The notes under the pieces were generated by a model. That model was not told the origin of the DNA, did not search any database, and saw nothing but the letters and a program-made list of their open reading frames with translations. The position numbers were made by a program, and so were the translations under genes. 64,000 bases of DNA from a virus: IMG/VR virus record IMGVR_UViG_3300045988_125846, positions 1 through 64,000 of that record; one strand, written 5' to 3'. Below, piece after piece: positions 8,710-64,000 of the stretch; position 1 is the stretch's first letter; each line of letters starts with the position of its first letter.

Positions 8710-9987
8710 TTAATTATAAGAAGGTTCAGATTTGTCATTTCTCACGATTTCAAAAATAGGGAACTGAACCGAAATTCCACCATTTTTATTCTTTGTTTCA
8801 CCTTTGAATTTAATCTGCACAATTTTACCAATAATCTCATTAGGATTGTTCCAATAGTAATTTCTCTGCTCATCAGTAAATCCAGATCCTACACCGAGTT
8901 CATATCCTTTGTAATCACATTTAATTAGTCCAAGAGTTCCTTTATATTTACCATCACCCTCAGCAATATCAGTGCAACGAATATCGGCATGTTTAAATGA
9001 CTTCACTTTAAGAATTCCATTATTACGTTTATTTTTCCATTTGGTATCCTTATTGAGCATCAGCCCTTCCCAACCATCTTTGTCAGCTTTATCAAGCAAT
9101 GGTTGAATAACTGATTTATCACTTCCTTCATATATAATAGAAACAACTTCAAGATTATCTGTATTTAAGCGAGAAATCGCTGTTGTTAGTGGATTTAAAA
9201 TTTGTTCTCTACGAGCTTTATATTTTAATTTACTTTCGCCATTTTCAAATTCTTCGTTTGGGATACATTCATAGATTACAAATTTAATGCAAGATTTATC
9301 AGAATCGTCAGAATTGATAATACCAGTTCCAATTTGGAAATTGTCATTATCAGAAAGATTATCATAATTTTTACGAATCAATTCACCATTAAACATATAA
9401 TTTTCATGGTTTGGCAATCGTTCAATATCTTTAATGATATGGTCAAGACCTGTAAATGGTTTACCCTGCCGACTAATTAACTGTCCTTTATAATATGCGC
9501 AGTTATTACCATTAAGTTTTTGGGATAAAGCAAACCATTCACCGTCTTTTGGCTCATTTTTCTCAGAAATTGGATATGCTTGCTGTACGTTCCATGATGG
9601 AATCAAACCATGAATCACACTATTTACAACTTTTTTATCACAACCAAGACGAAATTTCTTTGTAACCATCTGTTTGTAAAAATCTTGATATTCTTCTGGT
9701 TGGTTTTCGATAAATCCTTGTATAGTTCCAATATCCATATCACTACCTGAATTAAAATCTGATAAGTATTTTATAACTTCTTTGAAAGAGTTCAATTCTG
9801 TTCCTGACATACCAACAAATTTGTTTAATTTCTTATCACTGATACCAGTCACCACATTTGAATCAAGCAGAAAAACCAAACACTTTTTAAATAACTCATT
9901 ATCCTTGTTGGCTTCAATAATTGTTTTCTTACCATTTGTACTGCTTGTATTTTGTATCTGTTTGAAAATTTTAATTACTTCTTCCAT
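8710..9987 (-). CDS. ATP-dependent DNA ligase
   Basis: Nucleotidyltransferase motifs SQKLNGNNC (KxDG-type adenylation Lys), FNGELI, EGLMLNK, GILKVK. Confidence 0.85.
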   Translation of the reverse strand: MEEVIKIFKQIQNTSSTNGKKTIIEANKDNELFKKCLVFLLDSNVVTGISDKKLNKFVGMSGTELNSFKEVIKYLSDFNSGSDMDIGTIQGFIENQPEEYQDFYKQMVTKKFRLGCDKKVVNSVIHGLIPSWNVQQAYPISEKNEPKDGEWFALSQKLNGNNCAYYKGQLISRQGKPFTGLDHIIKDIERLPNHENYMFNGELIRKNYDNLSDNDNFQIGTGIINSDDSDKSCIKFVIYECIPNEEFENGESKLKYKARREQILNPLTTAISRLNTDNLEVVSIIYEGSDKSVIQPLLDKADKDGWEGLMLNKDTKWKNKRNNGILKVKSFKHADIRCTDIAEGDGKYKGTLGLIKCDYKGYELGVGSGFTDEQRNYYWNNPNEIIGKIVQIKFKGETKNKNGGISVQFPIFEIVRNDKSEPSYN

Positions 9988-17152: not shown

Positions 17153-18091
17153 TTAACTTACCTCTCTTTCTTTTTCTATATCCTCTACATATAAGAAAAT
17201 GTATCCTTGACACGTTTTATTAACTCTTGTGCAACATTTTGATATAGCACTCCTTGAACAGCCTATTATTTCTGCTGCTTCTGTTACCGATTTATATCTT
17301 GCAATTTCTTTATATTTCAAATCATATTGGATAACCTCTTTATAATGAGCCTCCTGTACTGCTCGTATCATAGATTCTGAATTTTTCTTCCCATATCTAC
17401 CATGTTTTTCTTTTGGTATTTTCTTATGAGCCTCTGACATTTTCTTTTTAGATTCGTTTGTGTGGTGTTTCCCATAAAAAGGATTATCCTCACTCAAATA
17501 TCTTTCTTTTGCTAAATTACTTAATACTTTTTTTGTTTCATCTGTATGATGTTTTCCGTAAAATGGATTCAACTCTCCAAGCACTCTATAATGTGCATCT
17601 TCAAGTTCCTTTTTACTTTTTGGTCTTCCAGTATTTGCAATTGCTATCTTCTGTTTTGTTTCTTCTGTATGATGCCTGCCTTGAAATGGATGTCCATATT
17701 TTTTCCAATGATCTTTTAGTTTTTTTTTCGTTTCCTCTGATGCTTTTCTACCTAATGCTTTTTGTCTTATTTTCTCTTTCGATTCTTCGCTTAATGTTGA
17801 ATTTTCACCACCTGAACGAATATTATATCCATATTTGCTATTTGTACTTTTATATTTTTTAATTAATTCTTCCTCTACTATATTAGCCATTTCTAAAGAC
17901 AATCCATCTATTAATACAACATGTTTGAAGTTGTTCCAACCATACTTATTAATAGCATTATTGAATGCAACACACGACTTATATCCCCACCCGCTATCCC
18001 AACGATCCTTTACATCTTCTTGACCTGTTTGACCTATATAAATCTTGCCATTAATTTTATTTATATGAACATATATTTTATAATTTTTCAT
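17153..18091 (-). mobile_element. free-standing GIY-YIG homing endonuclease gene with NUMOD3 repeats
   Basis: KIYVHINKINGKIYIGQTG...KYGWNNF (GIY-YIG). Repeated HPFQGRHHTEETKQKI / NPFYGKHHTDETKKVL / NPFYGKHHTNESKKKM. C-terminal HTH IGCSRSAISKCC. ATG at 18091 with SD GGTGA (track start 18118). Confidence 0.85.
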
Positions 18092-18130
18092 GTAAAAATC
18101 ACCATCCAATATTCTCAAAGAGTATATGAA

Positions 18131-31287: not shown

Positions 31288-32145
31288 TTACTCTTCACCA
31301 ACAAATACCAATCTATCAATATATTCTCTGCCTTCGCCCTTGAAAATAGGAATATCTGTATCAATAACCCATTCTGTTCTATATTCAATAGCTCTGACTT
31401 CACCATTATATCCAGTTGATTTATTTTCAATTTTCTTTTTTACACAACAGCTTCCTCTCTTCTGATAAGTCGGTAAATCATTCCAGTTAATACCTTTCTG
31501 TATCATAAGCATATCCTGAATATCATTACATGACTTATTCTGCAATTCCTTGTGTGAGAAATTGGCTTGACCAACCATCTGAATTGAATTACGAGAAGCG
31601 TCAAGTTGTCGCCAATATACGAGATTTGTTACTTCTTCTTTTGGGATATTAAAGCAACGGGCATCGAACATTGCACCTTTGTTAATAGCTTTTTTATAAA
31701 TTTCCCATAACTTTCTATTTTCTTCAGTATCAATGCCATTATCGTTATATGCTAACTCTAAATCAAATTCCTTTACATATTTAGAAAAAATATTATTAAA
31801 CGCCATTGTTGCCATACTTGCAGCAATACTACAAATCTTTTGTACTTCATAATCAAACCATGCTGAAGATGTAAGCTTCTTATAATCAACAAGAATCAAT
31901 GTAATCTCATCTGACTGTGTGTAACCAAGAACACAGCCCTGAATATTCTCACATAAGTATTTCATTGTTTCCTGCATAGACTTAATTAACACTTCATCAA
32001 ACGGCTTATGGAATCCTCTTGTAAATGTGTGAAACGCCTTTCCGTCAATTCTGATAGCAACTGGGCATCTTCTCATTAATTTTGTCTTAGGAATCTACTC
32101 ATAAAATGTCTTCATCCTAACGCCTAAATCATCATGTACTGGCAT
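31288..32145 (-). CDS. Thg1-like protein (tRNA-His guanylyltransferase family, 3'-5' polymerase) with in-frame TAG at codon 17
   Basis: MPVHDDLGVRMKTFYE-TAG-IPKTKLMRRCPVAIRIDGKAFHTFTRGFHKPFD plus GYTQSDEITL match the Thg1/TLP palm (RxDGxxFxxFT, SDE). A strong SD (AGAGAGG) precedes ATG 32145; the internal ATG 32076 has none. Confidence 0.75.
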
Positions 32146-33817: not shown

Positions 33818-33842
33818 CCAAGGAAACCGATATTTCTTGTCC
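33818..33842 (-). repeat. intergenic IR element
   Basis: Plus strand: ccaaggaaaccgatatttcttgtcc. Confidence 0.5.
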
Positions 33843-33850
33843 TTTTTATC

Positions 33851-33893
33851 ACTATATATAGTAGTTTTAATTTGCCTAACCACTATATATAGT
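33851..33893 (-). promoter_or_regulatory. bipartite palindromic operator / promoter region (copy 2)
   Basis: Perfect ACTATATATAGT at 33851-33862 and 33882-33893, starts 31 nt apart. Upstream of ATG 33796. Confidence 0.65.
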
Positions 33894-33926
33894 ATGTGTT
33901 TTTATGAAATATACTACCTATTGTAT

Positions 33927-40528: not shown

Positions 40529-40538
40529 TATTCTCTAC
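40529..40538 (-). promoter_or_regulatory. gene-boundary motif GTAGAGAATA
   Basis: Plus strand tattctctac. Contains the TAG stop of the PAPS-reductase-like gene. Confidence 0.4.
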
Positions 40539-41545
40539 TTTTTATTCATTTTCTTTACAAATTCACGATACTTCCTTGTATATTCGTAAGAATCTCCGAA
40601 AATATTATTAACAGCCTTATAAAGTTTTGGTTCATATTTTTGAATTACTTCTAATTCGTATTCAAAATCTCTACCAAATGGACAGCCTGCACAACCAGTT
40701 CTTTTCAGTCCGTATTCTGTATAACACTTGCTGTGTTCAATATCATAAGCATTTTCATAGTCTATTTTGTCTGAGTCTTTATACCAAAATAAAGGTCTAT
40801 AATTATCACAACCAGAATCATTTTCATCAAAACAACTTTTATATGCAGTTGCTCTTGCTCCACCTTCGGCTTTTCTTACACCTACAATATTTAGGTCAAA
40901 TGGTATTTTACCATCGCCATATACACCTTCTCTTAAAATCTTATGTGAGACATCTTTCTTCGCATATTGACAGCATTTGTTAGAAATTTTAAATGTTGGT
41001 GGGTTTTCAATCATAAATTCTTTTAGCCATTTATTATGAGTAATATTAAATTGACTACCATTACCTTTTATTTCACACCACCATTCCAATGCAGATTTGC
41101 ACTTAGGATATTTCTTATATAGCGTATCAAAATCCTCGTCTTCCCATTGGAAGTTATGTTTTTGTAATCTTTGGATAAATTCACTGACTTGCTTAGATAG
41201 AAATGGTTGTCCATATCGTTTACACGATAGTGAGATTGGCTTAATTGCTTTATATGAATTAATTGTTATATCATATTTATTTTCTAAATATTCGAGATGT
41301 TCTTTTGTTGCAGAATATTCTAATCCAGTATCAAACCAGACATACTTCACTTTATTACTTTTATCGCATCTATAAACAATATCCAACATATCATCACTAT
41401 CTGATCCGCCTGAAATAGAACATAGTATATATAAATATTTGTGGCTGTTAATTTTTGACCACGCTCTTATTAAATTGTCTCCTATTATTGAGTTTACAGG
41501 ACAATCCTGTAATAATTCTTCAATTGTATTAGCTTTCTGTACCAA
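40535..41545 (-). CDS. PAPS-reductase-like PP-loop protein (DndC/IbrA-like family)
   Basis: PP-loop SISGGSDSDDM, GVRKAEGGAR, C-terminal RTGCAGCPFG. TTG start. Confidence 0.75.
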   Translation of the reverse strand: MVQKANTIEELLQDCPVNSIIGDNLIRAWSKINSHKYLYILCSISGGSDSDDMLDIVYRCDKSNKVKYVWFDTGLEYSATKEHLEYLENKYDITINSYKAIKPISLSCKRYGQPFLSKQVSEFIQRLQKHNFQWEDEDFDTLYKKYPKCKSALEWWCEIKGNGSQFNITHNKWLKEFMIENPPTFKISNKCCQYAKKDVSHKILREGVYGDGKIPFDLNIVGVRKAEGGARATAYKSCFDENDSGCDNYRPLFWYKDSDKIDYENAYDIEHSKCYTEYGLKRTGCAGCPFGRDFEYELEVIQKYEPKLYKAVNNIFGDSYEYTRKYREFVKKMNKK

Positions 41546-54745: not shown

Positions 54746-54761
54746 AAAACCCTCCTAAATT

Positions 54762-54785
54762 CCTCAAGAAATCTATGTTTCTTGG
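54762..54785 (-). repeat. intergenic IR element
   Basis: Plus strand: cctcaagaaatctatgtttcttgg. Confidence 0.55.
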
Positions 54786-54795
54786 TAAAAATATT

Positions 54796-54838
54796 ACTAT
54801 ATATAGTGTCTATATTTTCTATAAACACTATATATAGT
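54796..54838 (-). promoter_or_regulatory. bipartite palindromic operator / promoter region (copy 3)
   Basis: Perfect ACTATATATAGT at 54796-54807 and 54827-54838, starts 31 nt apart. Lies directly after the nadE stop. Confidence 0.65.
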
Positions 54839-54845
54839 ATTTCAT

Positions 54846-55586
54846 TTACGCCTGATACATAAAACTTGGCATTGGCTGTAATTTAAACAGATTTTTCTCA
54901 TGCATTGAATCAATCTTAGCTTTTACTTCCTCACTTGGCTCAATTCCATCTCTGATGTATGCATCTAATTCAGCATAAGTAAATCCAAGGTTATCTTCAT
55001 CTGTCTTTCCACAAAGACCGTCAGTAGGTGTCTTATCAACTAATTCTGATGGAAGTCCTAACTCACGACCAATAGCCTTAACCTCTGTTACTGTAAGCTG
55101 AGATAACGGTGCAAACGAACCAAATCCGTCACCTCCGAAGGTCGCATAACCAACCCAATCCTCGGAAAGATTACAATTACAACTTGGTATACCGTTATTA
55201 CACTGAGCATAGAAATACAATTCTGTCATTCTAACTCTTGCAGGAACATTTACTTTAGCCTGTTCTGTAACAACTACTCCATTTGATTCCATTTCAGAAA
55301 TAATAGAATCAACGGTTGAACCGATATTAATAATTTTGTATTCAATCCCAAGATGATTTGCACATAAAATACTACAGTCAATATCTGACTGTTCATACTG
55401 TGGTAGCATAATACCTTTCACTCTATCAGCTCCTAGAGCAGAGACACATAAGGCTGCGACAACAGACGAGTCTTTACCGCCAGATAAAGCAACACAACAG
55501 TTCTTATCTGGGAATTTTTCTTCAAACAAATTTTTAATCCATTCGATACAATCATTTGTTACTTTCTTAACATCAAAATTATACAT
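54846..55586 (-). CDS. nadE: NH3-dependent NAD+ synthetase
   Basis: PP-loop ALSGGKDSSVVAAL, NVPARVRM, YATFGGDG, TPTDGL...DEDNLGFTY. Confidence 0.85.
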   Translation of the reverse strand: MYNFDVKKVTNDCIEWIKNLFEEKFPDKNCCVALSGGKDSSVVAALCVSALGADRVKGIMLPQYEQSDIDCSILCANHLGIEYKIINIGSTVDSIISEMESNGVVVTEQAKVNVPARVRMTELYFYAQCNNGIPSCNCNLSEDWVGYATFGGDGFGSFAPLSQLTVTEVKAIGRELGLPSELVDKTPTDGLCGKTDEDNLGFTYAELDAYIRDGIEPSEEVKAKIDSMHEKNLFKLQPMPSFMYQA

Positions 55587-55608
55587 AGGTTCTCCTTCAT
55601 TTATAGGT

Positions 55609-56412
55609 TTAATCAGTTATTTCCACTTTATAGTTATACAATGCCCTATATACAACTATAGGAAAATTATCATATTTGTTTTTATAATAGTCTGCAATTT
55701 CTTTTATATAGTTTTCTTTCTCTTTTTTATATGCACAAAATGCTTCTTCTGGTGTGTTAAATACACCGATATGTACTTGTTGTTTTGTATTTTTCGTATT
55801 ATTATTTAATTTTGAAACTTGTGCAATAAATTTTCCAAGTCTTTTATTAAAAGATACTCCTATTGGGTATTCCCCTCTTTTTGCGTCAGTTTTCGTGAAA
55901 AGAATATTAATACGTTCAGGAACGAAGATACATGTATCTTTTGAATATACTGTATTATTTTTATATAATATGTCTTTATCCAAACACATTTTCTCTTCTC
56001 CACATTCGTAAAAATTATCATTAAACCACTTTGAAAAGTTCGACAAATAAAACCACTCATCATCTACTTCGCATTTTTTGTAAGTCGGATATCGTGATAA
56101 ATCTATTTTATTATAACAACGCTTTAACATACCAACCCAGTATAAATATTCTTTTGTAAATGAATCATCTTGTTTTATTATTTCATTTCCTACTATACCG
56201 TGATTAAATACAGTAGGTAAAAATGTATCAAATGTAGTACCTTTAATAAAATTGCTATATGCCTGATGATATACAATGTTGTTCGTATCTAAGAATTGAA
56301 TATCAATATCTGTAGCATTTTTATATTTAATTATTTTCATTCTTTCGCCCTGTTTATTAACTACTATTTCCCAAAGTCTTTCCTTTGCTTGTGATTCAGA
56401 TATTTTAAACAT
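55609..56412 (-). mobile_element. putative free-standing homing endonuclease (HNH-like core + AP2-type DNA-binding domain)
   Basis: WVGMLKRCYN...YPTYKKCEVDDEW...LDKDILYKNNTVYSKDTCIFVPERIN block, plus IGVSFNKRLGKFIAQV...VHIGVFNTPEEAFCAYKKEKENYI (AP2-like). Interrupts the NAD operon. Confidence 0.6.
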
Positions 56413-56460
56413 AGGGTTATCTGTTTTTAAATGTGTTTCTTTTATTATATATTCTCCTTC

Positions 56461-57087
56461 CTACATTCGATTCATCACATCATAAAACCGAATTAAATAC
56501 TCATATACATTTCTAGGAACTAACTCTTTTACTTTTTCAAATTCACCTTTCTCACATAAATCTCTAACCAAACTTGAAGAAGTATGATTTTCTGGTATCT
56601 GAATTTCTGTGAAATGTTCTTTGTATTCCATAAGATTTGCTTCTCTCAAAGCATTCTCAAGGTTCTGACCTTCTCTCACACATGCTACAAAATTATATTC
56701 CTCAACAAACGGTTTCCAATTATACCAAGTTGTAAGTGTTTCAATATTATCCATTCCTAAACAAATATAGTATTCGTTGAAGATATAATCTTTTTCATTC
56801 ATATCTCTTATCTGAGTAATAGTATTGTATGTCCTCTGTGGAAAGAAGCTGGTTGTTTCAACTTCGGATGCCCACATATTATTTTCATCACAATTTGGCA
56901 TTGAATTAATCAGCGATACTCGACAATATCCAGGTATTAAAGTCTTTTTCTTCGCAACATATGTATCATGTGCAGGAATAAACAATATAGCATCGGCATT
57001 AACCGCTTTTTTAGCAGTCAATGCCATATCAACATGAGCGTTTGTAATCGGATTAAAACTTCCTGGTATAAGTAAAATTTTATTCAT
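56461..57087 (-). CDS. nadD: nicotinate/nicotinamide mononucleotide adenylyltransferase
   Basis: ILLIPGSFNPITNAHVDM (GxFxPxHxxH) and C-terminal SSSLVRD (ISSTxxR-like). Confidence 0.8.
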   Translation of the reverse strand: MNKILLIPGSFNPITNAHVDMALTAKKAVNADAILFIPAHDTYVAKKKTLIPGYCRVSLINSMPNCDENNMWASEVETTSFFPQRTYNTITQIRDMNEKDYIFNEYYICLGMDNIETLTTWYNWKPFVEEYNFVACVREGQNLENALREANLMEYKEHFTEIQIPENHTSSSLVRDLCEKGEFEKVKELVPRNVYEYLIRFYDVMNRM

Positions 57088-58288
57088 GATCCATTCTCCA
57101 ATTAATACATCTCTTTAGATAATCAACATAATCAGGGTTTTTACACATGCCTTTTCCTTCTACGTCAGAAACTTTTGCAACATCCATACCGTTACATTTA
57201 GTAGTTTTCATTACAATATTTAAAGCAGGAACATCTGTATCATTACTCAAATAAGTACCAATTCCAAATGCAACATTTACTCTATCATGGAAGTGTCTGA
57301 ATAACTTATCAGCTCTTTCAAAATCAAGACTGTCACTAAACAGAAGTGTCTTTGTCTTAGGATTTATACCAAGTGACTCATAATGATTAATCATCTTTTC
57401 ACCCCATTCAATCGGATCGCCACTATCATGTCTTACACCACTGAATAATGTTGCATATGTCAACTGAAAATCTTTCAAGAAACAATCAGTTGTAATTGTA
57501 TCTGTGAGCGCAATACCATTTAACACACCATACTCTCTAACCCATGCGTCTAGGGCATACCAGTTTGAATATGCTGGATTGTGCTTGTGATTGCCCTGAC
57601 CAGAACACATAATCCATTCATGAGCCATAGTTCCAACAGGCGTGAGATTATATTTCTTTGCGAGATATACATTAGATGTACCAACAAATTTAGATGGACT
57701 GTGTAATGTATCATTCAAATGTGAAAACTTCTTAACAGCTAACTCCTGTGCTTCAGCAGAAAGTCTTCTTCTAAGACCAAATTCAGAAAATGTACCAGCA
57801 TACCAATGACCGCTTCTGAGATTTTCATACTTTTCATCTAATCTCTTTTTGAAACTATTAAGCAATTCTTCATAGTTATATGCCATTCTGAAATATACTT
57901 CGTTTACAATCGCAAGTGTAGGAATCTCATACATAGATGTATTAAGCCATGTACCAAATGTTTCGATAGAAAGACCGCAATCTGAATCTGTTGTAATCTC
58001 AAAATCCTCATATCTTGGCTGCCACAATCTCAGAAAATCAACATACGAACCCTTCATCCATTTGATATTATCAATATAAGTAAGTTCATCTTCTGTGAAT
58101 CTCAAACCACAATATAATTTAATCTGTCTGCGAATCTCTTCTACCATTTCTGGTGTAAAATGAACATCCTTATTACGACACTTAAAACTCCAAGTGGTTT
58201 TATAATCACTAAACTGATGATAAATAGCCTGTCCCATTGACAATTTGTAGGCATCTGTCTCAAATAAACTTGTAATAATCTGCTCCAT
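57080..58288 (-). CDS. pncB: nicotinate phosphoribosyltransferase
   Basis: MEQIITSLFETDAYKLSMGQ..., GTFSEFGLRRR, GTSNVYLAKKYNLTPVGTMAHEW. ATG at 58288 with SD AGAAGG (the track extension to 58381 overlaps the upstream gene). Confidence 0.85.
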   Translation of the reverse strand: MEQIITSLFETDAYKLSMGQAIYHQFSDYKTTWSFKCRNKDVHFTPEMVEEIRRQIKLYCGLRFTEDELTYIDNIKWMKGSYVDFLRLWQPRYEDFEITTDSDCGLSIETFGTWLNTSMYEIPTLAIVNEVYFRMAYNYEELLNSFKKRLDEKYENLRSGHWYAGTFSEFGLRRRLSAEAQELAVKKFSHLNDTLHSPSKFVGTSNVYLAKKYNLTPVGTMAHEWIMCSGQGNHKHNPAYSNWYALDAWVREYGVLNGIALTDTITTDCFLKDFQLTYATLFSGVRHDSGDPIEWGEKMINHYESLGINPKTKTLLFSDSLDFERADKLFRHFHDRVNVAFGIGTYLSNDTDVPALNIVMKTTKCNGMDVAKVSDVEGKGMCKNPDYVDYLKRCINWRMDHE

Positions 58289-58289
58289 A

Positions 58290-58844
58290 TTATTTACCTT
58301 CTTTCTTGATTTGATTAAATATTGTTCTAATATCATATTCTCTGTTTTCGTACTCATAAAACAGATTAATATACTTATCAATAAAAGCTATATCATTTGG
58401 ATGCATTGCAATTGGTTTACTTTTCTTAGATTTCCACCATTTTAATTCCTTCTCAAAATTAAATGATTTACCATGATATGCTCTACCTGCTCCAAGATAA
58501 TCACAAAGCATTTCTTTTTTATACTTCATTGGCATTTCAATAGGATTTCCACCATTATCAAAATTGTCTTCCCAATACTCGTAGTGGTGCTTGTTTCTTC
58601 CTTTATGGTGCATCCAAGCAGCCGACCAACCATTCTCTTTCTTACAAGCGTCTATTGGACTTGAAGTACCTTGATAATACTTAACACTCTCCCAAAATTC
58701 CGTTGGAGAAAATTTAGATAAATCATGTACTAACCCTTGAAATGGAATTCCCACTTTACAGCAATAGTAGAACACCCAACGTTTATGAGTACAGACTTTC
58801 TTAAAATGTCTAAAAGTATTAATGATATAATTCTTATACTTCAT
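58290..58844 (-). CDS. HD-motif protein of unknown function (DUF5662-like, from memory)
   Basis: FRHFKKVCTHKRW...GLVHDLSKF...WMHHKGRNKHHYEYW (H...HD...H-rich). ATG at 58844 lies 6 nt after GGAG and inside the pncA 3' end. Its stop is 1 nt from the pncB ATG. Confidence 0.55.
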   Translation of the reverse strand: MKYKNYIINTFRHFKKVCTHKRWVFYYCCKVGIPFQGLVHDLSKFSPTEFWESVKYYQGTSSPIDACKKENGWSAAWMHHKGRNKHHYEYWEDNFDNGGNPIEMPMKYKKEMLCDYLGAGRAYHGKSFNFEKELKWWKSKKSKPIAMHPNDIAFIDKYINLFYEYENREYDIRTIFNQIKKEGK

Positions 58845-59358
58845 TATTTTCTCCAATCACTTCAATCTGACAACTTTTCATAACTTCCATAGCAGCTTTA
58901 TGTTTATCAGGTGTGACACCTGCACAGCAACTAGCATCTACTGTAATATCAATCTCAGGATAATTTGCTCTAATAATAAGTGCATTTGAAATTACGCAGA
59001 TACTTGTGCATAATCCGCAGATTTCAACACTTTTAAATTTAAAATCATCCCAATGTGCCCATCCAAAAGTAATTTTGTCAATCAGAATGTCATTATCAAT
59101 ATCAAGATCTAACTTATCTGAAATCTGCCAACCAACAGTATTCTTTACACAGTGAGTAACAGGAAGATGTACACCTTCATATGTCTCTAAATAATTCTCA
59201 GAGTGTGTGTCTCTTGTAAAGATTACCTGTTTACCAGCATCCTTGTACTCCTTAATTTTCTTTGCTACATTTGATACAATCGCCTGTGCTTCCTTTGTAC
59301 CAAGCGTTCCATCAATAAAATCATTCTGCATATCTACAACAATTAATGTTTCTCTCAT
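58834..59358 (-). CDS. pncA: nicotinamidase / isochorismatase-family hydrolase
   Basis: LIVVDMQNDFIDGTLG, FTRDTH, ICGLCTSICVISNAL (Asp-Lys-Cys type). Confidence 0.8.
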   Translation of the reverse strand: MRETLIVVDMQNDFIDGTLGTKEAQAIVSNVAKKIKEYKDAGKQVIFTRDTHSENYLETYEGVHLPVTHCVKNTVGWQISDKLDLDIDNDILIDKITFGWAHWDDFKFKSVEICGLCTSICVISNALIIRANYPEIDITVDASCCAGVTPDKHKAAMEVMKSCQIEVIGENNEV

Positions 59359-60365: not shown

Positions 60366-61757
60366 TTAATATTTAATCCAACCATCTGTAATACCAGTCA
60401 TCCAATAAATAAGATCTTCTCTATCATTTTTTAATCTTCCATCTATTACACGAGTTAAGATTTCATTGAGCCAGTAGCCAACTTCTTTTCCACTTTTAAT
60501 GAGCATTGTATCCATTACATCCTTACCATTAACTGCTAAATCCTTTAGAGAAAAACATTCATCATCCTGTAAGACTTCTTCTAAAATATATCCAATGTTA
60601 TCAATCTTCTGTAATCTTGTTTCCTGATTAATGTCTGCTTGTGCTTTAATATCAGCTCTACGAACATTTAATAACCTTCTGAACTGTTCTTCTCCAATTT
60701 TATTAAGCCATCTCTTGACATATTTCTTTCCAACCTCAAAAGTAGCATCATGATAATAAACAAGCTGTACAACCTTTTCTCTTGTATCATTATCAAAACG
60801 AAGTCTTTTCATAATTGTATCAGTCATATCAGCACTGACTTTTCCATGTCCTTTGAAATGTCTGATACCATCTTCTCCATCCTGATAACAATGTGGTTTT
60901 CCTATGTCATGAAAGAATACCGCTAATGATGTAATTAAATCTATTGGATTTAAGTCTTCTTCACAATCACAAGAATATGCTTCTACAGCATGAATTGTAT
61001 GTTCCCATACATCATAGATGTGATATGGATTATTCTGTGGAAAATCAAACATATCTTTTATTTCAGGAATAAACAATGATAATACATCGCTATATAAAAC
61101 CATCTGTACACAGAAATCACTTGATGCAGCGATTTTACAGAACTCACTATTTATCCTTTCAACTGATATATTCTTCAAATTCTGATACACCTTATGTAAA
61201 ACATAATCTGTATTTGGTTCAAGAACAAAATCCAACTGAGAAGCAAATCTGATAGCTCGTAAAATTCTCAAAGCATCTTCATCGAATCTATCTTCTGGTT
61301 TACCAACACACTGAATTTTGTGATACTTTATATCTTCCATGCCATTAAACGGATCTACAAGACCAACTTCATCATTGTATGCCATCGCATTGATTGTAAA
61401 ATCTCTACGCTTTAAATCTTCTTCAAGACTTTTTGTAAAAGTTACTTTATCTGGTCTACGGCTATCAGAATAATTACCATCAATTCTGTATGTTGTTACT
61501 TCATATGGTTCTCCATCAATGACAATCGTTATTGTTCCATGCTGTAAGCCAGTTTCAATAATTCTTTTATCCTTGAATACTTCCATCATCTCATCAGGTG
61601 TAGCAGATGTTGTAATGTCATAATCGTGAATTGGTCTTTCCAGAATGCTATCACGAACACAGCCACCAACTAAATATGCTTCGTATCCTTTATCTTGGAG
61701 TATATGAATAATCTCATTTGCACCAGATGGGATTTTAATTTTTAATTTAGATTTCAC
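60366..61757 (-). CDS. cca: CCA-adding enzyme (tRNA nucleotidyltransferase, class II, with HD domain)
   Basis: YLVGGCVRDSIL...DYDITT, GTITIV, RRDFTINAMA, ALRILRAIRFASQL, HD domain FFHDIGKP. Confidence 0.85.
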   Translation of the reverse strand: MKSKLKIKIPSGANEIIHILQDKGYEAYLVGGCVRDSILERPIHDYDITTSATPDEMMEVFKDKRIIETGLQHGTITIVIDGEPYEVTTYRIDGNYSDSRRPDKVTFTKSLEEDLKRRDFTINAMAYNDEVGLVDPFNGMEDIKYHKIQCVGKPEDRFDEDALRILRAIRFASQLDFVLEPNTDYVLHKVYQNLKNISVERINSEFCKIAASSDFCVQMVLYSDVLSLFIPEIKDMFDFPQNNPYHIYDVWEHTIHAVEAYSCDCEEDLNPIDLITSLAVFFHDIGKPHCYQDGEDGIRHFKGHGKVSADMTDTIMKRLRFDNDTREKVVQLVYYHDATFEVGKKYVKRWLNKIGEEQFRRLLNVRRADIKAQADINQETRLQKIDNIGYILEEVLQDDECFSLKDLAVNGKDVMDTMLIKSGKEVGYWLNEILTRVIDGRLKNDREDLIYWMTGITDGWIKY

Positions 61758-62775
61758 CCTTAACCACCCTTTCGTTTACACTTGCAACAAACTCATTGAT
61801 TTTCTTGTAGTCTGGATTTTCAGGAAGATTAGTATTTTTCTTTGCATAATCCAATCTCTTCTCATAGTCATTTACCATTTCAAAGAACTCAGGAATTGGC
61901 TGATCGTTGCTGTCGAGATATTTACCATTACGAATATCCATAAGCAAATCATGTTCATCTTCTCTATATGTGATTATTCTCTCTTTCTCAAGAATATCTA
62001 AACACATCATATAAAGTCGAATAAGATGCATTGAATGTTTTGCAATTTTACCATGCTCAATAGCTTTCTCATTTCTTTTACCAATCTTTCCATACTGACG
62101 AACTGTGTTCTGAAGTTCATTCCACATAGAGCAATAATCTCTTAATGGATAATGAGTAAGGTTTACATCCATAAAAATCTCTGTGTCATATCCTTCCTGC
62201 ACAGCCTTATCAATATATAACTTCATTGAATCATCTGAATATGGTGTGTATTTCTTTGTAAAATCTGTCTGCATAAATTCAAGCGTCTTTAAAATGTGTT
62301 TCTCCAATTCTGACTGAGACATCTGATGTGCTGCTTTCTGGTTCAATCTATAGAGCTGCTGATTCGCATATCCTCCAAACGAATGACAAGCTCTCTTTGA
62401 TAAAAATAAATGTGCATTATCAATTAGTTCCTGACCAATAGATGATACATAAAAGTAATGTTCAGGTTTATTTCCAAGCATTTCTATTGTATTAGGATTC
62501 GTATTACTTAACAATGCTACTAACTTATTAAAGGCATAAATAGTTGTGTCTGTCTCATTGTTTACAAACTGCTCAAAATTCTCATTTGTGAGGATCTGCA
62601 TCTTGCTATTCAAAGCACAACCACGAATATCTAAATCACTGCCTTCATTGTTTGTTCCATATGCATGACTTCCACCAAGAGTTAAGATAATGATATTGTT
62701 ACCTAAATTCTTATCTGTTCTCAGGAAGTCATACTCTTTTGATTTTAATTTGTCCTTAATCTGTTCAATTGTCAT
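61747..62775 (-). CDS. RlaP-like Pol-beta-superfamily nucleotidyltransferase
   Basis: TLGGSHAYGTNNEGSDLDIRG (GS...D-x-D). ATG at 62775 lies 8 nt after GGAGG. Overlaps the cca start by 11 nt. Confidence 0.6.
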   Translation of the reverse strand: MTIEQIKDKLKSKEYDFLRTDKNLGNNIIILTLGGSHAYGTNNEGSDLDIRGCALNSKMQILTNENFEQFVNNETDTTIYAFNKLVALLSNTNPNTIEMLGNKPEHYFYVSSIGQELIDNAHLFLSKRACHSFGGYANQQLYRLNQKAAHQMSQSELEKHILKTLEFMQTDFTKKYTPYSDDSMKLYIDKAVQEGYDTEIFMDVNLTHYPLRDYCSMWNELQNTVRQYGKIGKRNEKAIEHGKIAKHSMHLIRLYMMCLDILEKERIITYREDEHDLLMDIRNGKYLDSNDQPIPEFFEMVNDYEKRLDYAKKNTNLPENPDYKKINEFVASVNERVVKGEI

Positions 62776-62795
62776 TGTCTTAACCTCCAAAATTT

Positions 62796-62818
62796 CGCAA
62801 GAAATGTGCGTTTCTTTC
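62796..62818 (-). repeat. intergenic IR element
   Basis: Plus strand: cgcaagaaatgtgcgtttctttc. Confidence 0.55.
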
Positions 62819-62833
62819 TAATGTAAAATATAT

Positions 62834-62877
62834 ACCATATATAGTATATATTGTTTATTTTTAATACTATATACGGT
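62834..62877 (-). promoter_or_regulatory. bipartite palindromic operator / promoter region (copy 4)
   Basis: ACCATATATAGT at 62834-62845 and ACTATATACGGT at 62866-62877, starts 32 nt apart. Preceded (in transcription order) by the hairpin at 62887-62916. Confidence 0.55.
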
Positions 62878-62886
62878 ATATTGATA

Positions 62887-62916
62887 GAGTCAGTAGGCTA
62901 TGACACCTACTAACTC
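62887..62916 (-). terminator. terminator-like hairpin after the TerD/PspA unit
   Basis: Minus strand GAGTTAGTAGG-TGTCATAG-CCTACTGACTC (11-bp stem including one G-U pair). The trailing U-tract is weak (TATCAATAT). Confidence 0.4.
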
Positions 62917-62921
62917 TTGAA

Positions 62922-63014
62922 TTATTTATTCTTCTTACGTTTTCCTACAATAAAACCTGCTCCAAAGCATACACCGAGACAGATTACGAAAACTCCAATG
63001 TTTAATACAATCAT
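62922..63014 (-). CDS. small membrane protein (30 aa)
   Basis: Hand-found ORF MIVLNIGVFVICLGVCFGAGFIVGKRKKNK. TAATG overlap with the upstream stop. Confidence 0.4.
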   Translation of the reverse strand: MIVLNIGVFVICLGVCFGAGFIVGKRKKNK

Positions 63015-63763
63015 TACTTATTACCTCTCTGTCTCTTCATATCATCAAGGATCTGGCGAGCATTGCGCTCTCTTTCAGAATTAGCAAGTCTTCTCTCATT
63101 AGCCTGTGCGCTAGAATCATATGCAATTCTACTTCCTTCTGCACGTTCTCTTGTCTTTCTTGCTCCTTCACGAACTCTTTCAAGCATTCTATCACTCTCA
63201 TTATTTGTATTAAGATTATCCATACTCTGATGAAGTTCGATAATCTGACTATCGGCTTCCATCTGAAAAAGAACCTGTTCCTTTTCCTCTTTAAGTTTCT
63301 GCAATTCTTCGGCTGCCTGATCACGAATGTCTTTTTGGTGAGCCTGTGCTTCTCTCATCTCTTCAATTGTATCTTTTAGTACATTAATCTTATTCTCCAA
63401 AGTAGACTTCTTCATTGCATACTGCATTGCTTCATTTTCTTTGTTTTCATCAAGACAAGCGTTAATCTGCTGTGTAACACGCATAATATCTTTATTTGCC
63501 TGATATAAGTCTTTTTCTGCTGTATCACGCTTTCCTGAAATTTCAGCATATGTAGCAGATGCCTTGTTATAAAAATCTTCCTTTTCTCTAATGGCTGCGT
63601 TATAATAATCTCTAGCACCTTCTGGTGTCTGTGCATCCTGACGCATTACTTCATCTGTTCTTCCTTTAAACTTTACTCGAAGCTGTTTACCAAAAGGAGT
63701 AAAGAAAAGAATCAGTGCAATTAATACAATCGCCACAATTATAATAAACATAAAATTTGTCAT
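63014..63763 (-). CDS. PspA/IM30-like coiled-coil protein with N-terminal TM helix
   Basis: N-terminal FMFIIIVAIVLIALILFF, then about 220 aa of PspA-like coiled coil (…AEKDLYQANKDIMRVTQQINACLDENKENEAMQYAMKKSTLENKINVLKDTIEEMREAQ…). Confidence 0.55.
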   Translation of the reverse strand: MTNFMFIIIVAIVLIALILFFTPFGKQLRVKFKGRTDEVMRQDAQTPEGARDYYNAAIREKEDFYNKASATYAEISGKRDTAEKDLYQANKDIMRVTQQINACLDENKENEAMQYAMKKSTLENKINVLKDTIEEMREAQAHQKDIRDQAAEELQKLKEEKEQVLFQMEADSQIIELHQSMDNLNTNNESDRMLERVREGARKTRERAEGSRIAYDSSAQANERRLANSERERNARQILDDMKRQRGNK

Positions 63764-63772
63764 ACAATCCTC

Positions 63773-64000
63773 CTACTCTGCATCAATTCCATACTGATTA
63801 CATAATGCCTTTAATCCACCATTATAGCCACTTCCTACAGCCTTAAACTTCCATTCGCCATTATGTTTATATATTTCAGATACGACTAACGCAGTCTCGG
63901 TAGAGAAGTCTTCACTTAAATCAAAACGAATAAGCTCCTCGCCTGTCTCTTCGTCTACTACACGCACATATGCATTTCCAACCATACCGAAGTTCTGAAG
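63773..64000 (-). CDS. TerD-domain protein (3' part; gene continues beyond the window edge)
   Basis: ...[64 protein letters not shown] is the C-terminal half of a TerD domain. The frame is open to position 64000. Confidence 0.75.

Follow-up and report, generated by a model that had tools for sequence, protein, structure and literature searches.

The 64,000-nucleotide stretch analysed here (the window) comprises the first 64 kb of a 155.5-kb scaffold from a human-gut metagenome (ENA ERZ28622646, scaffold_22; IMG/VR record IMGVR_UViG_3300045988_125846) and belongs to a temperate phage of ~155 kb. Every gene of the window is encoded on the minus strand. Close to its far end, two overlapping genes encode a Pol-beta nucleotidyltransferase of the RlaP family and a class II CCA-adding enzyme with a C-terminal HD domain (Table 1). 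A sequence-only reading of the window had taken these two genes, together with a Thg1-like gene, for a two-ended toolkit with which the phage mends tRNAs damaged by host nucleases.

Results

RlaP and a CCA-adding enzyme are encoded by overlapping genes

The first gene of the pair starts with ATG behind a GGAGG, and its product matches the Pfam RlaP profile PF10127 over profile positions 11–247 of 249 (5.5e-15; 56.2 bits against a cutoff of 23) as well as the PHROG family phrog_388 (1.7e-51). The Pol-beta catalytic set (G35-S36, D47, D49 and D76) is intact: in an alignment of 64 diverse homologues of 34–96% identity, no sequence departs from G35, D47 or D76, and S36 and D49 are conserved in at least 90%. 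These data bear out the assignment to RlaP made from the sequence alone. The AlphaFold model of the protein (pLDDT 91.7) matched only remote minimal nucleotidyltransferases in the PDB (KNTase, LinB, HalB and MNT); the best match, KNTase 1KNY, is a remote likeness only (E 1.5e-3; TM-score 0.30–0.38), and sequence and fold searches of our PDB copy returned no RlaP structure.

With the rest of its family the protein shares the hidden Markov model match, the intact GS...DxD...D motif, a length of ~340 amino acids (aa), a nucleotidyltransferase domain joined to a helical C-terminal domain, and a phage-borne location that, in relatives of this phage, lies amid RNA-repair genes. More than 10,000 proteins, T4 NrdC.11 among them, make up the RlaP family, and Burroughs and Aravind reportedly described RlaP nucleotidyltransferases within modular RNA-repair systems in 2016 (NAR 44:8525). 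The family is named for its link to RNA ligases, whereas the fixed partner here and in most of the clade is a CCA-adding/HD protein.

The second gene is predicted to encode a CCA-adding enzyme rather than an A-, CC- or poly(A)-adding one. Its product scores 330.9 bits with the NCBIfam equivalog NF009814 ‘CCA tRNA nucleotidyltransferase’ (cutoff 290 bits), and its translation contains the class II motifs GGCVRD, HDYDITT and RRDFTINAMA, motif D DEDALRILRAIRF and the flexible loop TTYRIDGNYSDSRRPD. FFHDIGKP is likewise present in the HD part, so that the class II CCA enzyme with an HD domain stands as originally called. The metal-binding residues of the HD domain (H253, H283-D284, H300, H304 and H336-D337) are invariant across partner proteins that are 37–68% identical, including partners that lack the nucleotidyltransferase head.

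Over head and neck, the closest PDB matches are 6IBP and 1MIV, the Planococcus and Geobacillus CCA enzymes; these Bacillus-type enzymes resemble this head and neck most, yet possess no HD domain. The class II head, the neck, the complete H...HD...H...HD set and the tail are shared with the multifunctional HD-type CCA enzymes (E. coli Cca and M. tuberculosis Rv3907c), and the same jobs are predicted for the phage protein, namely CCA addition and removal of 3'-phosphates or cyclic phosphates. It differs from these enzymes in that its gene appears to be coupled translationally to a second nucleotidyltransferase. According to PMC10673834, citing Yakunin 2004, both the E. coli and the M. tuberculosis CCA enzyme have an HD domain with phosphatase activity, which is proposed to clear 2',3'-cyclic phosphates.

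Between the RlaP stop and the GTG start of the CCA gene the two frames overlap by 11 nt, as had been noted, and a Shine-Dalgarno-like AAAGGGTGG lies inside the 3' end of RlaP. The overlap suggests that the two genes are probably coupled in translation.

Table 1. Features of the window, by position.
Feature	Position	Strand	Evidence or remark
Tyrosine integrase and Tn916-type Xis	136-1449	minus	prophage end
ATP-dependent DNA ligase	8710-9987	minus	only ligase in the window; DNA_ligase_OB_2, DNA_ligase_A_M, phrog_114 1e-82, 6RAU 6e-26
GIY-YIG/NUMOD protein, probable homing endonuclease	17153-18118	minus	between RecD2-like helicase and Pol III alpha
Thg1-like protein (TLP) gene, interrupted	31288-32145	minus	start 32145; Shine-Dalgarno AGAGAGG
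Adenylosuccinate-synthetase homologue, 363 aa	36050-37141	minus	size typical of phage PurZ, not PurA
PAPS-reductase-like gene	40535-41545		near the adenylosuccinate-synthetase homologue
NAD synthase (NadE)	54846-55586	minus	
AP2-domain protein, probable homing endonuclease	55609-56412	minus	between NadD and NadE; missing there in L005
NadD-like adenylyltransferase	56461-57087	minus	
NAPRTase (PncB)	57080-58381	minus	
DUF5662	58290-58856	minus	
Nicotinamidase, PncA-like	58834-59358	minus	
Class II CCA-adding enzyme with C-terminal HD domain, 463 aa	60366-61757	minus	GTG start; Pfam, NCBIfam
tRNA_NucTran2_2 C-terminal tail domain	60402-60824	minus	Pfam
HD phosphohydrolase domain, residues 258-341	60735-60986	minus	PF01966, 28.5 bits (cutoff 22)
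Nucleotidyltransferase head, residues 27-148	61314-61679	minus	PolyA_pol 4e-39; GGCVRD, DYD, RRDFTINA
Overlap of RlaP stop and CCA start, 11 nt	61747-61757	minus	
RlaP-family Pol-beta nucleotidyltransferase, 342 aa	61747-62775	minus	PF10127, phrog_388
Hairpin in 5' untranslated region	62794-62821	minus	AAGAAA-N6-TTTCTT
Operator-like palindrome 2, 16 bp	62832-62847		ATACTATATATGGTAT on minus strand; 32 bp from palindrome 1
Operator-like palindrome 1, 16 bp	62864-62879		ATACCGTATATAGTAT on minus strand
Sigma-70-like match	62866-62893	minus	CTGACT-16-TATAGT (9 of 12); -10 hexamer inside palindrome 1
Inverted repeat, 12-nt arms, 8-nt loop	62886-62917	minus	after PspA-like gene and a small transmembrane open reading frame

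The pair is a conserved unit built around an HD/tRNA-binding body

We counted the gene arrangement in 78 IMG/VR loci with enough sequence downstream of RlaP. A CCA gene overlaps or abuts RlaP in 61 of them (RlaP identity 69–99%, CCA identity 51–93%), the overlap being 11 nt in 51 loci, as in the window, and 17 nt in 9; in 7 further loci the CCA gene lies within 1.5 kb of RlaP, and in 8 it is absent. The overlap also occurs in 14 of 34 loci on contigs of Clostridia genomes (RlaP 53–80%, CCA 35–71% identical). One of these cases is chromosomal: in [Clostridium] asparagiforme, the pair sits between a 5'-3' exonuclease gene and lexA. The genomes of Enterocloster lavalensis, Anaerocolumna jejuensis and Anaerophilus nitritogenes contain it as well. 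The genes that flank the pair vary freely between loci. Among GenBank phages, ~197 of 276 RlaP-positive records carry a CCA enzyme, with the two genes mostly not adjacent. We conclude that RlaP–CCA is a genuine conserved unit, probably co-translated; therefore, the pairing is not due to chance.

The partner of RlaP is not always a complete CCA enzyme. In three loci, the gene that overlaps RlaP encodes only the HD domain and the tRNA_NucTran2_2 tail, without a nucleotidyltransferase head (L227, L234 and L229, the last at 9019-9813 with 264 aa); in the [C.] asparagiforme chromosome (L239, 9001-10374), the head has lost its DxD (EVWE) and all HD residues are kept; and in the protein P0164, RlaP residues 1–237 are fused to HD and tail. 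Because the headless, DxD-less and fused forms all keep the HD domain, the constant partner of RlaP is the HD/tRNA-binding body, to which the phage version adds a CCA head with all its motifs. As Rosetta-stone evidence the fusion was set aside as weak, being a singleton on one contig. In one locus (L015), RlaP itself is replaced by a membrane protein and a 207-aa open reading frame (ORF), and our searches found no family for either.

RNA-repair genes adjoin the pair in relatives

Repair genes were sought with Pfam and PHROG profiles in all window ORFs of at least 150 aa and in five shorter ones. These scans detected no RNA ligase, polynucleotide kinase (PNK), RtcB or Tpt1; they returned only the DNA ligase and nucleotide kinases of guanylate-kinase-like and thymidylate-kinase-like types. 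A tblastn search of the window with the Pnkp, metallophosphoesterase and KptA proteins of relatives gave nothing below E 0.5, and an extension of the search to 10 kb on either side of the window (84 kb in all) likewise revealed neither RNA ligase nor PNK. The earlier statement that the window has no ligase or PNK is therefore correct for RNA ligase and PNK and incorrect for ligases as such, because a DNA ligase is present; it lies in a replication cluster with Pol III alpha, RecJ, primase, DnaB, a RecD2-like helicase and NrdDG.

In relatives, the same pair keeps different company. A 730-aa kinase-metallophosphoesterase-Rnl1 ligase (Pnkp-like) directly follows the CCA gene in L077, and a Pnkp-like kinase-phosphatase-ligase is also found near the pair in L010, L085, L007 and L236. 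RlaP is also associated with an RNA ligase in L039, where KptA abuts RlaP directly upstream; a metallophosphoesterase follows RlaP in L007–L009; and Thg1 abuts RlaP in L240 and L019. In 33 IMG/VR loci (~40%; e.g. L015, 13402-14322), a DHH/DHHA1 (NrnA-like) phosphoesterase of ~306 aa, whose gene is not present in the window, directly follows the CCA gene. The unrelated Pseudaeromonas phage KLEP7 has a cluster of Pth2, CCA, RlaP and metallophosphoesterase. Within the lineage of 94–99% RlaP identity, only one of 34 long IMG/VR contigs carries the Pnkp-ligase of the family.

Because the same pair adjoins a Pnkp-type kinase-phosphatase-ligase in relatives, it is one exchangeable component of a modular toolkit for RNA repair that is already known, and not an alternative system. 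The claim that the phage differs from the PNK and ligase system thus holds for the window, which has neither RNA ligase nor PNK, and does not hold for the pair, which stands beside Pnkp-ligase in L077, L010, L085 and L039. Classical healing-and-sealing (T4 Pnkp and Rnl1; Clostridium thermocellum Pnkp/Hen1) would share with the pair the aim of restoring tRNAs cut by defence nucleases, and relatives of this phage encode a Rnl1-type enzyme of that kind beside the pair; the window differs in having no homologue of the relatives' repair kinase, phosphatase or ligase, and the route proposed below would finish with nucleotides polymerised onto a free 3' end instead of a sealed nick.

The Thg1-like gene is interrupted by an amber codon

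The third gene of the supposed toolkit belongs to the Thg1 family, as had been predicted (PF04446, 3e-29, 101.8 bits against a cutoff of 29.2; Bacillus thuringiensis TLP, BtTLP, 4KGK, E 4.8e-60), and the catalytic RIDG and SDE motifs are present. The uninterrupted frame is what did not stand: an in-frame TAG occupies codon 17 (32095-32097), with the remainder of the ORF intact, and the longest open frame (31288-32076, 262 aa) runs from Met24. All 80 of the 80 IMG/VR homologues examined have Gln (CAG) at this codon (...MKTFYEQIPK...), so that the window carries a CAG-to-TAG change. Compared with BtTLP, the amber codon removes the conserved N-terminal DDLGxRMKxFYE motif unless it is suppressed.

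Two trivial explanations were rejected. A sequencing error is ruled out because at least 23 contigs, which stem from several studies, carry the interrupted allele with an identical ORF, and genome-wide recoding of TAG is ruled out because TAG ends 24 of 101 long window frames and splits no other gene. In this lineage, the enzyme is predicted to be either inactive or initiated at Met24 without the conserved N-terminal motif; reinitiation at Met24 or amber suppression is possible. Because of the premature amber codon, the ‘two-ended’ character of the repair toolkit is not secured in this phage.

A palindrome pair precedes the RlaP–CCA transcription unit

The palindromes ahead of RlaP follow a consensus, ATACTATATATAGTAT, with 15 matches in the window against 2.1 expected. 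The pair lies at about −104/−72 from the RlaP ATG and is kept in most relatives at 95–99%, even where the upstream genes differ. The sequence-only reading had spoken of an operator-controlled promoter: the palindrome pair is real and conserved, whereas the operator function is presumptive, and the sigma-70-like promoter, the only match of its kind ahead of RlaP, is putative because such matches occur at chance frequency, being no commoner in the region than in shuffled sequence. The inverted repeat further upstream, which is not followed by a T-run, is possibly a terminator or the boundary of the preceding unit. A PspA/IM30-like protein gene (63014-63985) lies directly upstream of the RlaP unit.

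Palindrome pairs recur at 54794/54825 and 33880/33911, with the same hairpin (54794-54840 and 33849-33926). The three copies of this architecture (62794-62879, 54750-54840 and 33820-33926) have palindromes 31–32 bp apart, a hairpin and a ribosome-binding site, and they seem to head three transcription units, one with RlaP–CCA and another with Thg1.

Downstream of the CCA gene come three small ORFs and then PncA, DUF5662, PncB, NadD and NadE, with the AP2-domain insert between the last two; the unit extends as far as the next palindrome pair. Besides RlaP–CCA, this transcription unit includes a whole Preiss-Handler NAD+ route (54846-59358); relatives L004 and L015 carry NAMPT, a PRPP-synthetase-like gene and NADAR instead. 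The four-enzyme route here differs from the published NARP1, NARP2 and NARP3 (PMC13464706), and the operon may be a further phage pathway of NAD+ reconstitution.

The element is a temperate phage of gut Clostridia

Integrase and Xis mark one prophage end; integrated copies (L256 and L258) run into the bacterial genes NusB, Asp23, GlgC/D and XseA, and a contig of the circular form joins the integrase to tail genes. MazG and dUTPase genes are found close to the integrase (L255). Near-identical contigs of the scaffold recur across many samples, and the bacteria with which relatives are binned, or into which they are integrated, are Lachnospiraceae and other Clostridia. A nucleotide search of phage GenBank records with the locus gave zero matches; the closest cultured relatives are Clostridioides phages with ~45% protein identity, in which RlaP or CCA is present and the two are never paired.

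The 10 kb beyond the window end, upstream of the pair, contain a PemK toxin gene and genes of tRNA-Gln(UUG) and tRNA-Met(CAU) (L014, 800-872 and 1035-1110); these tRNA genes lie ~9 kb from the pair, and neither encodes CCA. In relatives, tRNA-Gln(UUG) and tRNA-Lys(UUU), which are classic targets of anticodon nucleases, are encoded a few kb upstream of the pair (L005, L019, L021, L028 and L094). The same region of L014 (5415-9991) holds three TerD-family genes, a P-type cation ATPase and a HAD_SAK_2 protein, which together with PspA form a stress or membrane module that is unusual in a phage. Elsewhere in the window, the PurZ-sized synthetase and the PAPS-reductase-like gene may point to modified-base chemistry.

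Discussion

The best reading of the pair is RNA/tRNA repair and counter-defence, because its neighbours in relatives are RNA-repair genes and phage genes of tRNA-Gln, tRNA-Lys and tRNA-Met. In this respect, the counter-nuclease tRNA repair that the sequence-only reading proposed fits both the neighbouring genes and the published biochemistry of RNA 3' ends; the particular damage that would be repaired is an extrapolation, and what is set out below on the substrate, on the sequence of reactions and on a role against host defence is plausible rather than observed.

CCA enzymes add their tail onto a tRNA that ends at the discriminator. We propose that RlaP and the HD-CCA protein form one conserved, co-transcribed and probably co-translated module that would repair damaged tRNA 3' ends without a ligase, a proposal that in our judgement hangs in even balance: the HD domain would first turn a 2',3'-cyclic or 3'-phosphate end into a 3'-OH; RlaP would then put back the one or two nucleotides that precede the tail, either the discriminator alone or the discriminator and position 72; and the last step, rebuilding CCA, would fall to the CCA head, with no ligase needed. 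To a prophage, such a module would be an insurance against host abortive-infection effectors that hit tRNA, alongside its own tRNA-Gln/Met genes and its NAD+ salvage operon.

The first biochemical study of RlaP (Carruthers, Fatma and Huang, late 2025) showed that Pseudomonas RlaP adds one or two nucleoside monophosphates to an RNA 3'-OH and rejects 3'-phosphate ends, with little specificity for the nucleoside triphosphate; on a tRNA mimic, it favoured an anticodon-loop break over the natural 3' end, and in total RNA it labelled full-length tRNAs and rRNAs (PMC12776372). The same addition of one or two nucleotides to a 3'-OH is plausible for the RlaP of the window, by analogy with the Pseudomonas enzymes, the likeness being one of family profile and motifs and not of pairwise comparison.

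Damage of a matching size has been described. The nuclease Cas12a3 removes 3–5 nt from tRNA 3' ends, discriminator plus CCA included (PMC12851939), and a module that adds 1–2 nt and then 3 nt would correspond to this in size; the link to Cas12a3 itself is speculation, and we consider it improbable. Equally doubtful, in our opinion, is the strongest form of the proposal, in which the pair would be a dedicated, ligase-independent tail-rebuilding machine and a viral answer to tail-amputating nucleases (Cas12a3, e.g. ACCA; HEPN toxins); here RlaP, acting as partner or subunit of the HD/tRNA-binding body, would replace the discriminator base, alone or with position 72, and the CCA head would finish the tail.

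Several points weigh against ligase-free repair of 3' ends. Pseudomonas RlaP prefers the anticodon-loop break and, given its low nucleotide specificity (PMC12776372), the correct discriminator would be restored in only a fraction of repairs. The same RlaP orthologue group adjoins the Pnkp-type ligase in L077, L236, L010, L085 and L007, which fits a classical fill-in before ligation; the ~70 kb of genome beyond the 84 kb examined could hold an RNA ligase, and the host may supply RtcB. In bacterial chromosomes, as next to lexA in [C.] asparagiforme, the pair may serve ordinary maintenance of tRNA 3' ends. Finally, phage tRNA genes without an encoded CCA are by themselves a mundane use for a CCA enzyme.

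Much of this could also be explained if the two enzymes had separate jobs and travelled together by chance: the CCA enzyme would mature and maintain the CCA-less tRNAs of the phage as well as those of the host, and RlaP would fill anticodon-loop breaks before ligation by a ligase encoded elsewhere in the genome or by host RtcB. The phage tRNA-Gln(UUG) and tRNA-Met(CAU) genes ~9 kb upstream, which lack an encoded CCA, the anticodon-nuclease targets encoded by relatives, the Pnkp-type enzymes beside the pair, the ligase association in the very name of RlaP, the substrate preference of the Pseudomonas enzyme (PMC12776372) and the non-adjacency of the genes in most GenBank phages that have both are all consistent with this account. 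However, chance travel accords poorly with a start/stop overlap that persists although CCA identity drops to 35%, and with the absence of the family's Pnkp-ligase from 33 of 34 long contigs of the lineage. Moreover, partners reduced to HD and tail, or with a degenerate head, still overlap RlaP, which argues that RlaP needs the partner protein itself. We therefore regard separate jobs as possible, if somewhat improbable.

A captured cellular housekeeping operon, which would perform routine quality control of tRNA 3' ends, such as those trimmed too far by exonucleases, and would serve the prophage in metabolism or fitness without a specific counter-defence role, is quite unlikely. It would agree with the pair in chromosomes or isolates of [C.] asparagiforme, E. 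lavalensis, A. jejuensis and A. nitritogenes and with the temperate nature of the phage, evident from integrase, Xis and the bacterial DNA that flanks L256 and L258; but in phages the pair belongs to an accessory region that is hypervariable and also holds typical conflict genes (those for NAD+ reconstitution, KptA, Pnkp, PemK and tRNAs), and genes of the RlaP family are over-represented in phages as well as in operons for RNA repair (PMC12776372; PMC7824862). Hardly credible is an offensive RlaP that would stop host translation in the manner of MenT by adding extra nucleotides to the 3' ends of host RNA or tRNA, with the CCA/HD partner limiting the damage: full-length tRNAs and rRNAs are indeed labelled by the Pseudomonas enzyme (PMC12776372) and MenT-type nucleotidyltransferases are described, in passages of PMC10435456 and PMC11541572, as extending CCA ends and blocking aminoacylation, but the phage relies on the same tRNA pool, a CCA-adding enzyme is unable to take off extra nucleotides, the neighbours are repair genes and not toxin-antitoxin pairs, and bacterial chromosomes keep the pair stably.

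The RlaP–CCA locus is not a new kind of system, because the idea of RNA-end restoration has been published (PMC7824862) and the RlaP family has been described. In section 3.4.9 of their 2021 survey of jumbo phages, Iyer, Anantharaman, Krishnan, Burroughs and Aravind proposed that, during phage–host conflict, bases missing from RNA ends are put back by enzymes of the three families discussed here (RlaP, CCA-adding enzyme, Thg1; PMC7824862). That section ties the distribution of RlaP to RNA ligases and lists the CCA enzyme and Thg1 as separate items; it contains neither the overlapping RlaP–CCA(HD) pair nor headless HD partners nor ligase-free genomes. In addition, the phages of the survey are jumbo phages, whereas the phage described here is temperate and of ~155 kb. 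Within the literature covered, which lies outside the 2016 founding paper of RlaP, three things appear to be new: the fixed, overlapping RlaP–CCA(HD) pair; its reduction to RlaP and HD-tail in some genomes; and the frequency with which the pair occurs in genomes that yielded no RNA ligase.

The role proposed for RlaP so far requires an RNA ligase. That one clade ties RlaP to a CCA/HD protein, often in genomes in which the search turned up no RNA ligase, suggests another function for RlaP: mending the tRNA 3' terminus itself. Cleavage of tRNA tails has only just been recognised as an immune strategy, with Cas12a3 shown in 2026; according to the authors of that work, viral tRNAs offer no way round the cleavage, and the means of viral resistance are unknown (PMC12851939). 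Even if the repair reading should fail, the pair is a well-documented example of the modular phage RNA-repair toolkit, carried by abundant prophages of the human gut.

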